The notes under the pieces were generated by a model that was given only the letters and a program-made list of their open reading frames with translations, was not told the DNA's origin and searched no databases. A stretch of 64,000 nucleotides of DNA, from the sequence record MK327928.1. The stretch is one strand, 5' to 3'. Every line of letters starts with the position of its first letter. Position 1 is the stretch's first letter. The position numbers and the translations under genes were made by a program. This document shows positions 31,702 through 41,616 of the stretch, in pieces. Origin of the DNA: Escherichia phage vB_EcoM_G2133.

Positions 31702-33384
31702 TTAAACCATTACAGTAAATCGACCAACTTTCTTCATTTGAAGATGCTGACCGTATGCTTGCGGGTCATGGTCTCTATGTGAAATAACAAAAACGTTAGT
31801 ATTTTTTAAACTATCTAAAATAGTTGAAATAGCTTTTACACCTTCAACGTCGGTCGCTGAATCAAAAACTTCATCAAGAATTAGTGTGTTTATTTTAACA
31901 CCTGAAACTTTTTCAGCAATATCACGCCAAGTAAATAAAAGAGCAATATCAATTCGTGCTTTTTCACCTTGACTGAATGAAGCATAACTAAAATCTTCAC
32001 GACCACGGGATTTAATTGTCTCATTAAATTCTTCATCTAATGTAAACACATAATCCGCTTCCATTATTTTAAGATAATGGTTAATCTGCTTATTAAATAA
32101 TGGAATGTACTTTTTAATAATAGCACCTTTAATACCAGAATCTTTGAGCATATCAGTCAAAATTCCTCGGTGGTATTTTTCCATTACTAAATTAGTTTTT
32201 GTCTTAACAATTTTATCAAGTTCTTCTTGAAGCAGTGCTATTTCATCAGCATGGTCAATAAACTCAGAAGATGCTTTTTCTATAGCCGCTTTAACCTTTT
32301 TAGCTTTATCTACCGTCGTGATTAGAGATTGCTTTTTATTGCGAATATCATTTGCCAACGACTGTTGGGTTTTAATATTATCTCGGTATTCATCAACAAG
32401 AACTCTTAAATTATCACGATGTGTTGAAAGCTGTTCAAACGAATGCGTACATTCAGAAACTTTATCTTTAATTTTAGAAACAACTTTATCACCGGAACTT
32501 AATTGTGACAAACAGGTTGGACATAATCCACCTTCGTGATACATATTAATGACTTTATTATACGAGTCAATTTTTGATTTAATTAAAAATGCTTCTTGAC
32601 CGATTTTATTAAATGCATCAGTCGGGTCTTCATCCAAAACAATATTAACTAATCTTTCATTAGCTTCTTCTATTTCCGATTTTAGCGTTCTAGCTTCTTT
32701 TGCCAAATCATCATACATATTTTGAAGACGAGTAAGGTTGTCACCCGTTAATTTTTTCTGGCGTTCAACGTTATCATTATATATTTTAATTTGTTGGATA
32801 ATACTATCTTTTTTAACATCAAGCACTTGGTTTTGTGAGTTTAATTCACGTATTAGTGCTTTATTAAGCTTATCCATTTCAGCTAATGTTCCTACCTCGA
32901 GCAGGTCTTCCACAAGCTTTCTTCGCGCAGGGGTCGACAAACCCATGAAAGGGGTATACCCTGCTGTACCAAGGACAACAATCTGCTTGAAACTGGCATA
33001 TGACATTCCGATAAGCTGTTCAAATTCTGCTTGGAAATCTTTACTGCTGGCAGATTCATTAAGACGTGTATCGTTAACGGTGATTTCGAAAACGTTTGGT
33101 TTTTGTCCTCTTTTGATATAGTACTTTTTCTCATCATATTCCATCCACAGTTCAACTAAAAGTTCTTTCTTATTTGTGCTGTTTATTAATTGACCTTTCT
33201 TTACATCGCGAAATGGCTTACCAAAAAGCCCAAATGTGATGGCTTCTAACATAGTAGACTTACCACCGCCATTTCGGCCAGTAATAAGAGTTTTTTGAAC
33301 CTTATCTAATTGAATGTCAACTCCATTTTGACCAACTGACATTATATTTTTATATTTTACTCTATTAAGTTTAAATGATTTCAT
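31702..33384 (-). CDS. 46: recombination nuclease subunit gp46 (Rad50/SbcC-like ATPase)
   Basis: 560 aa; Walker A GRNGGGKST; coiled-coil middle; C-terminal LILDEVFD. Confidence 0.85.
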   Translation of the reverse strand: MKSFKLNRVKYKNIMSVGQNGVDIQLDKVQKTLITGRNGGGKSTMLEAITFGLFGKPFRDVKKGQLINSTNKKELLVELWMEYDEKKYYIKRGQKPNVFEITVNDTRLNESASSKDFQAEFEQLIGMSYASFKQIVVLGTAGYTPFMGLSTPARRKLVEDLLEVGTLAEMDKLNKALIRELNSQNQVLDVKKDSIIQQIKIYNDNVERQKKLTGDNLTRLQNMYDDLAKEARTLKSEIEEANERLVNIVLDEDPTDAFNKIGQEAFLIKSKIDSYNKVINMYHEGGLCPTCLSQLSSGDKVVSKIKDKVSECTHSFEQLSTHRDNLRVLVDEYRDNIKTQQSLANDIRNKKQSLITTVDKAKKVKAAIEKASSEFIDHADEIALLQEELDKIVKTKTNLVMEKYHRGILTDMLKDSGIKGAIIKKYIPLFNKQINHYLKIMEADYVFTLDEEFNETIKSRGREDFSYASFSQGEKARIDIALLFTWRDIAEKVSGVKINTLILDEVFDSATDVEGVKAISTILDSLKNTNVFVISHRDHDPQAYGQHLQMKKVGRFTVMV

Positions 33385-33399
33385 TTTGTATCCAATTGT

Positions 33400-34261
33400 T
33401 CACAATGAAGAAAATTCTTTAACTAAAGCCTGTAATGAAGCCTCTATTGGATATCCATTCTTAACTAACATTTTCCTAAACATCACATGTTTAGGACGAT
33501 TATATGATATCCACAATTCATACAATTTATCTTTATTATCCCAATGATAACCTTTTCGTCGAGATGCTATATGAGCTTTTCTAATCTCCGGATTTTTCCA
33601 ACTAGCAGCTACTGAATTTGATATAGCTATTTTATATTCAGGTTTTGATAAAGCAGCACGAACAGCCTTTTGGTGTTTAATTTTATTTTCTTCGTTATTA
33701 AACCATTCCCTTGAAGCCATTGAAATTTTTTGTTTTGTTTTAAAATTATTTAATCTTTCTTTGTTATCTTTCCTATTTTTTGCTACTGAAAAATATTTTA
33801 ATGCCCTTTCTCTAGCAGCATTTCTATTTTGCGGATTTGAATAATACTGTTGAAGCCTTTTTGATATTGTGTCACTTACATCTTGTTTTATAAAACTATA
33901 CTCAGCAGCTATTAAATCAACTTCGGCTAAAGATAAATTTTTATATGTTTTTCCTGACATCATTCTATTTAAAGCATTTAGCATTTAGCATTTTTCCATT
34001 TTTACCTTTTGCTAATAAGAAATGTGCTTTAAAATGATTAAAATGACTTAAATTAACTAAATTCCATGTAGATTTTAAATATTCAGGAAATATTGATTTA
34101 GGAAGCACGTGGTGTGCTTCCGTTTTACCTGGAGTTTTAACAGTTGAATTCATAGAAATAAAATTAATGTAAGACTTGGCGTCTTCTTCACTCAACGCTA
34201 ATTTTTCAACTAATTCCTTTATTAAAAATTCATCATTAATGTCAAGTTTAAAATTCTTCAC
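33400..34261 (-). pseudogene. HNH homing endonuclease (Mob-like) split into two ORFs by an extra copy of a 7-bp repeat
   Basis: ORF 33965..34261 carries HNH motif EAHHVLPKS...NLVNLS...HFKAHF; ORF 33400..33984 matches the C-terminal half of the intact HNH ORF 53868..54647. Confidence 0.65.
33973..33993. repeat. heptamer agcattt x3 (minus strand aaatgct) at the HNH frameshift point
   Basis: three exact tandem copies; two copies would give a continuous reading frame. Confidence 0.9.
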
Positions 34262-34473
34262 AAAAGATTCCTTTTAATGTATCTTTTAGACCATTCTATC
34301 ATATCATCATAATCTAAAAAGTATTCATCAAATTCAGCCATGCAAACAACACCTTGTGCTGTTTTTGATGTAATATAAATTATTCCAACATATCTAGAAT
34401 CTTCTTCGGTATAATCAATGTTTGCTATGAATTCATCATTAATGTCAAATGTCGAAAACTTCACAGTATGCAT
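34258..34473 (-). CDS. hypothetical small protein (likely start ATG 34473)
   Basis: 71 aa from MHTVKFSTFDINDEF; N-terminal coding sequence repeated at the HNH start. Confidence 0.4.
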   Translation of the reverse strand: MHTVKFSTFDINDEFIANIDYTEEDSRYVGIIYITSKTAQGVVCMAEFDEYFLDYDDMIEWSKRYIKRNLL

Positions 34474-34708
34474 CCTTAATACAAGATACAGCCATATCTC
34501 GTAATGATTTAGGCGTGTCATTATCTAAAATGTTGAAGTTAAAAGATACAGCCCAATCAGTGCAGACTGTAACCTTTTTAATATAATTATCTTCAACCTC
34601 TAGTGGTTCAAACCAGTATTCAATAATTTCTTTATGACCAATATCATCTTTTACTTCGCATTCAAAATGCTGACTCATCATAACATTTTTAAATTCATCA
34701 AAAGTCAT
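34445..34708 (-). CDS. hypothetical protein
   Basis: 87-aa ORF immediately downstream of gene 47. Confidence 0.45.
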   Translation of the reverse strand: MTFDEFKNVMMSQHFECEVKDDIGHKEIIEYWFEPLEVEDNYIKKVTVCTDWAVSFNFNILDNDTPKSLRDMAVSCIKDAYCEVFDI

Positions 34709-35724
34709 TGTGTTGCCTCTACATATAACTGATTTGCATATTGAATAAGTGCTTCACGGTCAGAATCAGTGATGTCTGGAATTGCATTAATGTATTCTTC
34801 CATCAATGTCTGAAGCGATTGAACTTCAACTTCTTCACTGTTATCTGACTCGACAGAGTTATCAATCTTTGACACAACTCGTAATGAATGCACAACTTTT
34901 TCTAGTTCAGATTCGAACTTCGTCAGATTTTTGTCTACTTCAGTTACTATAACACGTACTGATAGATTTGTAAAATCTTTATAGTCAATTTTTCCTTTAA
35001 ATGGATAATGAATTCTACGATGCCAGGTAGTATTGTTTGGAATAAATTCCATTCGTTCTGTTTCTGTATCAAACATCCAGAACCCGCGAGGGTCATTCTC
35101 GTCACCTGCTGTTAGTGTCCATGGTGTCCCAATATATCTGACGTTAGCAGCCTCAGAAATAGTATGGAAGTGACCAGACCACACTTCTTTATAAGTCTTA
35201 AGGAAATCAGGTTCAAGACCATGAGATTTCATTCCTTTATAAAAATAAAATCCATTCAGTTCCCAGTGACCAACACAAAAAGAAGCAGATGAAGTTTTGA
35301 TGTGCTCAAGAATTTCACCAGTATTTTCTTCGCACATCCAAGGAATCAAATCAATCAAACACCCGTCAAAATCTACTGTAGTAGGCTTATCATATACTTT
35401 AACATTAGGATATTTAGCCAAAAGCTCAGTAGAAGCATTTGGAGTTAAAGTATTTTTAAAGTGCATATCATGGTTTCCTACAACAGTATGTAGGGTAATA
35501 CCAGCATCATCAAGCATTTGAACTATTTCACGAGCGAACTCCATAGTTTTATGCGTGATTGCTTTTCGCACATCAAAAATATCGCCGTATTGAATCCATG
35601 TAGTAATTTCATTTTTCTTAGAATATTCTATGGCTTGTTTAATTCCATCCAACTGAATGGATTGAACCCACTCATCATCGGCTTTAACGCCTAAATGCCA
35701 ATCACCTAAATTTAAAATTTTCAT
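34705..35724 (-). CDS. 47: recombination nuclease subunit gp47 (Mre11/SbcD-like)
   Basis: 339 aa; phosphoesterase motifs LGDWHLG, GDIFD, GNHD. Confidence 0.85.
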   Translation of the reverse strand: MKILNLGDWHLGVKADDEWVQSIQLDGIKQAIEYSKKNEITTWIQYGDIFDVRKAITHKTMEFAREIVQMLDDAGITLHTVVGNHDMHFKNTLTPNASTELLAKYPNVKVYDKPTTVDFDGCLIDLIPWMCEENTGEILEHIKTSSASFCVGHWELNGFYFYKGMKSHGLEPDFLKTYKEVWSGHFHTISEAANVRYIGTPWTLTAGDENDPRGFWMFDTETERMEFIPNNTTWHRRIHYPFKGKIDYKDFTNLSVRVIVTEVDKNLTKFESELEKVVHSLRVVSKIDNSVESDNSEEVEVQSLQTLMEEYINAIPDITDSDREALIQYANQLYVEATQ

Positions 35725-35859
35725 ATATCAAGAACCGTCATTGAAATGCAAAATAAAATTATTGAAATAAATCCATCTGGAGTGCTAAAGAACCCAATCC
35801 AACATGCTCTAGTGAATAGATAAAATGCAAGAAAAAGTATCACATATCCAAGAAATATC

Positions 35860-35883
35860 ATTATATCAAACTCCGTATAAAGC
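35860..35883 (-). promoter_or_regulatory. MotA-dependent middle promoter for gene 47 (aGCTTTA, 12-bp spacer, TATAAT)
   Basis: minus strand aGCTTTAtacggagtttgaTATAAT immediately 3' of hairpin 35885..35902. Confidence 0.45.
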
Positions 35884-35884
35884 T

Positions 35885-35902
35885 AAAGGGCCGAAGCCCT
35901 TT
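35885..35902 (-). terminator. stem-loop aaagggc-cgaa-gcccttt at the alpha-gt stop
   Basis: 7-bp stem, UUCG loop on the minus-strand RNA. Confidence 0.5.
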
Positions 35903-37103
35903 ATTTTGTAATAATGTCAAACTGTTCTTTAAAGCAGAAGCTTGAATCTTGATGTTGATACAAAAATTCATACGCTTTTTCACGTTCGCGGTCATAAAGA
36001 GCTCGGTCAGATGACAGTTCTTTAATACGCTCAAACGTTGATTCCATATCATTTTCATCAAACCAAATGATACCGCTATCATGCGAGGTCAAAGGAGTAT
36101 TATCAACACGGAATTTTAAATTTTCGCCAGTAGATTTCCAAAATACCGGAATTGTTCCACATGCACCAAGCTCGAGATGAGTATATTCTAAAGAACGCTG
36201 TAGATATTTTTTATCCAACTTACTCAGCTGATAACCAAATCCGGATTTACTCATGCGTTCAAGCATTTCGCTATTTACATAACGGTCAAGAATTTGCGTT
36301 GGCAAATTAGGAGCAATTTTAATTTGGTCTACTTGATGAAGACGATAATACTCGTATGGAATTCCTTTTTCTTTAATAGGAATGAACGCTGGAGAACGTT
36401 CCAGACCTTCCATAATAGTACTTAGTCCTGCAGGTTTAAGATGTTTTTCATGAAAATCAAACATCTGATAAAAACCTTTCCATGTAGTCGTACGACCAAT
36501 CCAACGGTTGATATTCATGTTAATTTCAGAAACATCTTTCCAGTAGGTTGATCGAACCTTCGCAATATCCATAGGAGGCTGAAAGTTATATACTGTCGGC
36601 GCTTCTTCAATATCATCAAACAGAGAAACTGTTTCCGGATACCATTCTTTCATCAGAACTTTATTAAAATCGCCATTATCAGAATGGCTAAAAATAACAT
36701 CAGCTCGACGAACAGTTTCTTCTAATCCCAAATTTCGACGCAAAGAAAGAGAAGAATGGTCATGCTGATAAACTACAACACGAACAGAAGGTTTAATGTT
36801 ATCAATAATTTTTTTATAGTTATTAATAGTGTCTTCTTCAACCGAAGTAGCAGGAACTGAATTGATAATTAGAATATCACAATCATTTACCAGCTTAAGT
36901 GTTTTATCGTATTCTTTTGCCAATAAAACCGGAATTGAAAATGATTTATAATCATGCGCGCAATTACGAGTAAATGATTTATCTTTAGCATAAACCAAAG
37001 TCACTTCATGACCATTTTTAATAAACCAATCACGTTGCTCGAGTGAGAATTTAGTTACACCACAACCTTCAAGACCTCGAGCCATAAAAATACATACTTT
37101 CAT
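35901..37103 (-). CDS. agt: DNA alpha-glucosyltransferase
   Basis: 400-aa ORF, MKVCIFMARGLEGCGVTKFSLEQRDWF. Confidence 0.75.
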   Translation of the reverse strand: MKVCIFMARGLEGCGVTKFSLEQRDWFIKNGHEVTLVYAKDKSFTRNCAHDYKSFSIPVLLAKEYDKTLKLVNDCDILIINSVPATSVEEDTINNYKKIIDNIKPSVRVVVYQHDHSSLSLRRNLGLEETVRRADVIFSHSDNGDFNKVLMKEWYPETVSLFDDIEEAPTVYNFQPPMDIAKVRSTYWKDVSEINMNINRWIGRTTTWKGFYQMFDFHEKHLKPAGLSTIMEGLERSPAFIPIKEKGIPYEYYRLHQVDQIKIAPNLPTQILDRYVNSEMLERMSKSGFGYQLSKLDKKYLQRSLEYTHLELGACGTIPVFWKSTGENLKFRVDNTPLTSHDSGIIWFDENDMESTFERIKELSSDRALYDREREKAYEFLYQHQDSSFCFKEQFDIITK

Positions 37104-41145: not shown

Positions 41146-41616
41146 TTAATCATGTTTCCACACCCCATCGGTATTTGACCAAAGCCGCTGATTATCTGAT
41201 CCTCGCCACAGCTTTTTAGTCGGAAGATTTTTCTCATACTTCCCATCAATAATAACATCAACATATTTAAGCATTTCTAGTTGTTTAATATCTTCAAACT
41301 TATATCCTGTCCACAACCAAATGCTTTTATTGGGATAAAGATTTTTTACTGTTTGAACAATACAATGAATAACATCTCGATTGTCAGGATAGAGAGGGTC
41401 TCCTCCAGTTATAGTCAATCCTTCTATATAATCATTATTCAAACATTCAATTAATTGTTCTAGTGTTTCACCAGTGAATGGAATACCATTTCTAGCATTC
41501 CATGTTGATTTATTATAACACCCTTCACATTTATGCAAACAACCTGTAACGAAAAGAACGACCCTGCAACCAGGGCCATTCACAAAATCGCAAGGATAAA
41601 ATCTATCATAATTCAT
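41146..41616 (-). CDS. nrdG: anaerobic ribonucleotide reductase activating protein NrdG (radical SAM)
   Basis: 156 aa; CLHKCEGCYN cluster motif. Confidence 0.8.
   Translation of the reverse strand: MNYDRFYPCDFVNGPGCRVVLFVTGCLHKCEGCYNKSTWNARNGIPFTGETLEQLIECLNNDYIEGLTITGGDPLYPDNRDVIHCIVQTVKNLYPNKSIWLWTGYKFEDIKQLEMLKYVDVIIDGKYEKNLPTKKLWRGSDNQRLWSNTDGVWKHD

Follow-up and report, generated by a model that had tools for sequence, protein, structure and literature searches.

A putative homing endonuclease gene seated in the start of gene 46 of T6-like phages, with a 19-base repeat at its junction

Several free-standing homing endonuclease genes (HEGs) of phage T4 are known to cut an essential neighbouring gene and co-convert its flanks, namely those for MobE at nrdB, SegG at gene 32 and SegF at gene 56 (PMC2988022 and general knowledge). 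In Escherichia phage vB_EcoM_G2133 (record MK327928.1), of which we analysed a stretch of 64,000 nucleotides (the window, to which all coordinates refer), a putative HEG lies just upstream of gene 46, and an exact 19-base repeat stands at its junction. Like the MobE, SegG and SegF systems, it is a promoter-less cassette coupled to an upstream open reading frame (ORF), lies beside a conserved essential DNA-metabolism gene, varies in presence among close relatives and is accompanied by a short diverged patch in the neighbouring gene. Unlike them, it is inserted in the coding start of its target gene and not in an intergenic spacer, and its cleavage activity is putative. Two other Mob HEGs also stand within coding sequence while host gene function is preserved: insertion of mobE in Aeromonas phage Aeh1 reportedly splits nrdA, and T4 mobA is said to lie between genes 39 and 60. 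In contrast to both, gene 46 does not become two polypeptides: all that lies upstream of the insert is six codons, and these are duplicated, so that a full-length gp46 is encoded.

T4 mobC, between nrdD and nrdG, belongs to the same family as the gene-46 HEG (36% identity to mobC-annotated genes, E=4e-22) and has a similar layout, in which the endonuclease ORF opens with the first codons of the gene that follows, and that gene restarts on a diverged duplicate. In our own alignments, T4 MobC (MNYDRIYSNLV...) and NrdG (MNYDRIYPCDF...) have their first seven residues in common. The two systems differ in locus and in target gene, and the N-terminus of the gene-46 HEG has a further component, in the form of six codons that were copied from 46.1, the gene upstream. 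A full-text literature search, including the Edgell 2010 review (PMC2988022), returned no published description of a HEG between 46.1 and 46 or of start duplication.

Alignments of the window, T6, T2, T4 and RB3 indicate that the gene displaced by the insertion is gene 46 and not gene 46.1. T4 carries 46.2-46.1-46 with nothing intervening; its 46.1 stop overlaps the gene-46 GTG, the junction ...CTTTTGTGAAGAATTTTAAACTTAATAGAGTAAAATAT... encodes MKNFKLNRVKY, and record M10160 carries the annotation 'g46 (gtg start codon)'. Window and T4 run collinear through GTGAAGAATTTTAAACTT; the window then continues as GACATTAATGATGAATT... into the HEG, and rejoins T4 at TTTAAACTTAATAGAG after a new ATGAAATCA. 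Relative to T4, the insert (33367-34243, minus strand, as for all genes of the 46-47 region) amounts to 877 bp (870 bp in T6), follows codon 6 of gene 46 and comprises 17 nt derived from 46.1, the HEG body, an 18-nt tail made up of the TGA stop and a 15-nt spacer, and a replacement gene-46 start. BLAST searches place the boundary at the same position: 71 phage records span the left junction, and the other 446 end at query position 56-57, corresponding to window 34244/34245. The right-junction query gave 70 full-length matches, and a query with the T4 junction found 46.1 and 46 uninterrupted in 446 of 517 records.

The insertion has left gene 46 with two starts. The ancestral one, GTGAAGAATTTTAAACTT (MKNFKL; 34244-34261, minus strand), preceded by an AGGA ribosome-binding site and identical to the T4 46.1/46 junction, is now predicted to initiate the HEG ORF, which has acquired the original ribosome-binding site, the GTG that overlaps the 46.1 stop, and the first six codons of gene 46. 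Gene 46 itself would now begin on a replacement initiation region borne by the cassette (33367-33399, minus strand), which consists of the spacer CAATTGGATACAAA followed by ATGAAATCATTTAAACTT (MKSFKL; 33367-33384). The two starts are identical at 14 of 18 positions over six codons, and RB69 gene 46 begins with the same ATGAAATCATTTAAA as the replacement. The insert is flanked by a 9-bp exact direct repeat, TTTAAACTT, formed by the last 9 nt of GTGAAGAATTTTAAACTT (left copy, 34244-34252, minus strand) and the last 9 nt of ATGAAATCATTTAAACTT (right copy, 33367-33375, minus strand). This is not the pattern of a target-site duplication from a staggered cut, as the 9 bp are part of an 18-nt imperfect gene-start duplicate, the right copy of which bears cassette-specific substitutions. 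The preliminary description of this DNA had proposed that the start of the displaced gene was duplicated, leaving that gene expressible. Such duplication holds for gene 46, in the form of GTGAAGAATTTTAAACTT and ATGAAATCATTTAAACTT, and the general idea stands for this class of element; it does not hold for 46.1, and the 19-mer is not the duplication concerned.

There are exactly two copies of the 19-mer, AATTCATCATTAATGTCAA, in the 64-kb window (34227-34245 and 34430-34448), as had been described, and no such matches are expected (100 dinucleotide-preserving shuffles, with up to 2 mismatches allowed). A repeat search lengthened the match to 45 nt (78% identity) at a spacing of 203 nt. On the minus strand both copies encode (F/L)DINDEF, codons 6-12 of an ORF beginning GTG AAG; the coding strands read GTG AAG TTT TCG ACA TTT GAC ATT AAT GAT GAA TTC in gene 46.1 and GTG AAG AAT TTT AAA CTT GAC ATT AAT GAT GAA TTT in the HEG ORF. 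The upstream copy (34430-34448; FDINDEF), which includes the TGA stop of 46.2, is native to 46.1 and is unaltered in HEG-less relatives such as T4 and RB3. The downstream copy (34227-34245; LDINDEF) comprises the first bases of the DNA missing from HEG-less relatives: the first 17 inserted bases, with the 2 shared bases that precede them, match 46.1 codons 6-12 exactly. The placement of a copy at the HEG insertion boundary was thus borne out by collinearity with HEG-less genomes, which ends at 34244/34245. So was the expectation that one copy would remain in relatives without the HEG, because T4 and RB3, read directly, each have a single 19-mer, in 46.1; in 446 of the 517 records the 46.1/46 junction is uninterrupted, and a second copy could not fit at that place. 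With both copies upstream of the HEG body, the pair does not form a target-site duplication. Apart from encoding HEG residues 6-12, the 19-mer is probably without function, although the pair could mediate a 203-bp deletion of 46.1.

We think it somewhat likelier than not that the 19-mer is a scar of the junction at the HEG 5' end and the relic of an older allele in which the start of 46.1 was fused to the HEG body. The DINDEF segment is taken to be native to 46.1 because its DEF is homologous to an HEF at the corresponding position of RB69 and S16 46.1, and because the Pfam DUF5487 model spans the 46.1 N-terminus. When the HEG is aligned with its paralogues, conservation begins after residue 12, and only the first 12 residues lack counterparts; this leader reads as gp46 residues 1-6 followed by gp46.1 residues 7-12. 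A further likeness after DINDEF, the EED present in both proteins, was set aside as coincidence, since HEG residues there align with the paralogues. A living example of this arrangement exists in Mosigvirus, where 146 of 156 records have 46.2-46.1-46 (RB69 type) and, in the other 10 (AV112 type), the HEG replaces the body of 46.1. For its first 22 nt (MTKTDYE), the AV112 HEG ORF matches the start of the local 46.1; beyond them it diverges, and its fusion point relative to the HEG body is about 1 residue or less from that in T6.

Under this reading, some Tequatrovirus would first have carried an allele with the 46.1 start fused to the HEG and the 46.1 body replaced. Codon 6 of the fused 46.1 start would then have become linked to codon 6 of a resident gene 46, through an illegitimate crossover or through repair primed by microhomology. 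The product would be a cassette placed behind an intact 46.1, with six 46.1 codons present twice as the 19-nt repeat. TGTGAAG is common to the initiation regions of 46 and 46.1, as are 5 of the 11 nt that follow it, and this is so in T4 as well.

Several observations weigh against the scar reading. The microhomology at the proposed crossover is weak (12/18 nt), with only TT at the exact join. The arrangement with 46.1 residues 1-12 fused to the HEG occurs in 0 of 71 Tequatrovirus HEG-positive records and in 0 of 7 cluster proteins with the N-terminus read, and exact-pattern scans of IMG/VR, JGI metagenomes and GTDB genomes did not find it; control scans of IMG/VR and the JGI metagenomes also lacked the T6-type junction, and the blanks in these two collections say nothing either way on the ancestral junction because both lack T6-like phages. 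Fusion to 46.1 is not universal, as the N-terminus of the Gelderlandvirus HEG has nothing in common with the 46.1-like gene there. Finally, a DK-13 paralogue (30% identical, at another locus downstream of an NTP pyrophosphohydrolase gene) begins MDINFKS, leaving some room for DIN being native to the HEG, although so short a match does not separate chance from a carried-over leader.

The best-surviving alternative is that a 203-bp unit running from 46.1 codon 7 to gene 46 codon 6 was duplicated in tandem, and that the HEG then replaced the second 46.1 body. The spacing of the two copies, exactly one such unit, and the replacement of the 46.1 body after its first codons in Mosigvirus both suit this scheme. 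However, no tandem 46.1 exists among the 517 records, all of which have either the single junction or the HEG, and the scheme needs as many events as the one we favour; we regard it as unlikely. Slightly less probable again is short-patch ectopic gene conversion, by which the 19 nt would have been copied, during recombination-dependent replication, from the 46.1 start into a HEG with a similar N-terminus. T-even phages recombine intensely, the flanking initiation regions are already similar at 12 of 18 positions, and the DK-13 paralogue begins MDINF. The sharp boundaries of the repeat coincide exactly with that of the insertion, though, and the Mosigvirus HEG has the local 46.1 start at the equivalent position, for which a relic of a homology arm is a better fit than independent conversions repeated in each lineage. 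The 71 HEG-positive records also include no variant with codons 7-12 unlike those of 46.1, a weak argument in the same direction.

An improbable explanation is a selected cis-element common to the two neighbouring genes, whether a translational operator, downstream box, RNA structure or promoter -35 element. The copies are equidistant from two GTG starts, each coupled to an upstream stop, and the 19-mer contains TTGACA. Yet this hexamer reads TTGATA in the T2 downstream copy, no promoter or terminator was called at either copy, the regional promoter count equals the shuffled expectation, and RNA folds of the two initiation regions are unlike each other and not significant (z = -0.7 and -1.4). 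The segment shared in Mosigvirus, moreover, differs in sequence and lies at codons 1-7, and one copy suffices in HEG-less phages.

The preliminary description had read the repeat as a duplication, akin to a target-site duplication, of the start of an upstream 71-aa gene, made by HEG insertion and keeping that gene expressible. The presence of two exact copies, both of them 11 nt beyond a GTGAAG start, and the lone copy in T4 and RB3 are what this would predict. As specified, the model is refuted by the T4 and RB3 alignments, and we accord it very little probability. With both copies on the upstream side of the HEG body, the insert is not flanked by them; the repeat that does flank the insert, TTTAAACTT, lies inside the six-codon start of gene 46. 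The gene said to be displaced, 46.1, is intact and nearly identical to its T4 counterpart over its whole length. Nor is GTGAAG a product of insertion, being the native start of both 46.1 and 46 in HEG-less T4, with that beside the downstream copy belonging to gene 46. A chance repeat, for which only the AT-richness of the genome speaks, is refuted by the blank shuffles and by a position matching the insertion boundary to the base, and its probability is negligible.

The endonuclease gene appears to be a Mob-type free-standing HNH HEG. In T6 it is a single ORF of 284 aa, annotated in RefSeq as a homing endonuclease; in the window it is split into an N-terminal ORF of 98 aa (33965-34261, minus strand; PHROG 655, E=6e-26) with an HH..N..H motif (EAHHVLPKS...NLVNLSHFNHFKAH) and a C-terminal ORF of 194 aa (33400-33984, minus strand; PHROG 655, E=7e-15), presumably the DNA-binding part. 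The HNH ORF noted previously does carry the motif but is only the N-terminal part of this split gene. PHROG 655, 'homing endonuclease', covers the two ORFs contiguously (profile positions 2-96 and 93-265), and there is also a match to PHROG 12434, 'HNH endonuclease' (E=4e-15). The sequence EAHHVLPKS...WNLVNLSHFNHFKAH in the 98-aa ORF conforms to the HNH catalytic motif, and H50, H51, N67, H76 and H80 are invariant in an alignment of five HEG homologues. Sequence searches against Pfam, NCBIfam and PDB gave no significant match, and the AlphaFold model, built on an alignment of 7 sequences, was too poor (pLDDT 52) to serve in a fold search. The missing curated match is more likely a failure of sensitivity than evidence against HNH membership. 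By tblastn, the HEG is 36.5% identical to PST mobC (E=4e-22) and 30% identical to mobD-annotated genes of RB3, RB6 and VR26 and to the matching unannotated T4 region, with the mobD-type matches covering HEG residues 47-281 (E=3e-11 to 2e-13).

As expected of a free-standing Mob gene, the HEG has the same orientation as its neighbours and is present in some collinear relatives and absent from others. Wherever it occurs, which is in 71 of 517 Tequatrovirus-like records, 10 of 156 from Mosigvirus and 5 of 16 from Gelderlandvirus, it occupies the position immediately upstream of gene 46; in the latter two genera the same lineage is 42-44% identical. Five clusters in the protein database matched the HEG, and in one of these, of 85 sequences, all 7 members with the N-terminus read begin MKNFKLDINDEF. 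A profile search of IMG/VR returned 6 distant loci, none of them in the 47-46 interval.

The window copy is probably inactive through a frameshift caused by a tandem duplication of 7 bp, ATGCTAA x2 (33978-33991, minus strand), that does not occur in T6, T2 or the 40 closest database records. Positions 33971-33991 read ATGCTAA ATGCTAA ATGCTTT on the minus strand, and relatives have one unit fewer. The second ORF begins on an ATG within the duplicated unit, so that the catalytic and presumed DNA-binding parts would form separate polypeptides. The T2 HEG has its own 2-bp deletion, the HEGs of RB68 and MLP2 match in two pieces, and these independent frameshifts look like the usual decay phase of a HEG. 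At the other end of the gene (window region 33385-33405), the HEG variant P0019 ends ...KEFLHCEQLDTK, and its TGA overlaps the gene-46 ATG (ATGA). This stop-start coupled form is probably ancestral, because its C-terminal length equals that of the Mosigvirus and Gelderlandvirus homologues, whereas the T6 and window HEGs have one extra T and stop 6 codons earlier. A palindrome with a 9-bp stem, GGAAGCACGTGGTGTGCTTCC (34101-34121), lies over the codons of the catalytic EAHHVLP motif and scanned as terminator-like on the non-coding strand.

Presence of the HEG is linked to a variable patch in gene 46 (nt 16-66; 33319-33369, minus strand), with a core at codons 12-21 (about 33322-33351). Beyond nt 66, gene 46 clusters by genus, with 98-100% identity within and 67-79% between genera, whereas nt 16-66 cluster by HEG status in Tequatrovirus, Mosigvirus and Gelderlandvirus. 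Patch identity between HEG-positive and HEG-less phages is 73% for T6/RB3, 76% for AV112/RB69 and 53% for Melville/S16, as against 80% across genera for T6 and Melville. HEG-less alleles encode YQNIMSVGG(N/S)PID, and HEG-linked alleles encode Y(K/S)NIMSVGQ(N/V)(G/F/P)(I/V)D. In Tequatrovirus, all 70 HEG-positive records (plus phage Ac3) have the HEG-type patch, which also occurs in 74 HEG-less records, including T4; about 372 have the other patch. The corresponding Mosigvirus numbers are 10 HEG-positive records, 5 HEG-less with the HEG-type patch and 133 with the other patch. Phage WFK is a recombinant with only codons 12-21 of HEG type. Such a distribution would be expected of a recognition or immunity site with co-conversion, and the patch is a candidate for a site of this kind or for a co-conversion tract. 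The HEG is likely to propagate by cleaving gene 46 of HEG-less phages close to codons 12-21; the patch in its own allele is diverged.

In Ac3 (OK040907.1), a 3.3-kb block at about 31,900-35,230 has 47% GC against 33% in its flanks. It starts exactly at the 46.1 stop and takes in gene 46, the endonuclease gene between 46.1 and 46, and an additional Mob-like HNH ORF on the opposite strand. Over the first 498 codons, Ac3 gene 46 differs from that of the window by 340 synonymous and about 4 non-synonymous codons, and the block therefore looks like codon recoding (synthetic sequence or artefact) rather than natural divergence.

The layout at nrdG extends beyond T4. Phage Jbel has a mobC-like HEG fused to 13 codons of the resident nrdG; nrdG itself starts anew on a 40-nt duplicate that has diverged. 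The window is without mobC, and its nrdG, which starts at 41616 on the minus strand, begins MNYDRFYPCDFVNG. The window is collinear with Jbel exactly to the 13-codon fusion point, and the first 13 residues of its NrdG are the N-terminus of the Jbel mobC-like endonuclease; at nrdG, too, the endonuclease ORF is thus fused to the resident start of the downstream gene. Mob HEGs may accordingly have a general 'start-capture' design, in which the HEG forms an in-frame fusion with the resident start of the following essential gene (ribosome-binding site, start codon and first 6-13 codons) and the cassette may bring a replacement 5' end for that gene, with a cleavage-immune patch. We propose this tentatively, at somewhat below even confidence, together with codons 12-21 as the target in gene 46 and the 5' end of T4 gene 46 as a HEG footprint.

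The surrounding gene order is that of a T6-like T-even phage (Tequatrovirus), and positions 33200-34900 are 98.6% identical to ECML-134 and 98.3% identical to T6. On the minus strand lie a-gt (35901-37103), 47.1 (35721-35861; named by position, as in T4), gene 47 (34705-35724; Mre11/SbcD-like subunit), gene 46.2 (34445-34708; T4_Y03C family, Pfam PF25721, E=1.6e-42), gene 46.1 (34258-34464; DUF5487, Pfam PF17589, E=2e-49), the endonuclease gene as two ORFs of 98 and 194 aa (33400-34261), and gene 46 (31702-33384), which encodes a Rad50/SbcC-like recombination nuclease subunit of 560 aa. The 71-aa ORF of the preliminary description is gene 46.1 taken from an ATG at 34473; T4 annotation begins 46.1 at the GTG (34464), giving an intact gene of 68 aa whose TGA stop overlaps the next GTG start. 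In RB3 (NC_025419.1), the RefSeq start of gene 46 is an internal ATG at codon 15. The annotated RB3 gp46 is probably 14 residues too short, because the T4-type GTG overlapping the 46.1 stop is conserved in RB3.

Together, these data correct the reading of the repeat: the start that was taken over belongs to the essential recombination nuclease gene 46 and not to a small upstream ORF. They leave the general picture of homing endonuclease biology unchanged and add a new instance of ordinary mobile-element biology, in which a selfish endonuclease gene can borrow the translation signals of a host gene while providing a substitute. As mobC/nrdG is laid out in the same way, the design may be a recurrent one; to our knowledge, it has not been spelled out. 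Start capture, if true, would guarantee expression of the HEG and make its imprecise loss lethal; if gene 46 is the target, the HEG would be aimed at the gene for the very Rad50-like nuclease on which homing depends. The gene-46 patch provides a concrete candidate recognition site for the uncharacterised T2/T6 endonuclease, and the textbook start region of T4 gene 46 may itself be the relic of a HEG.

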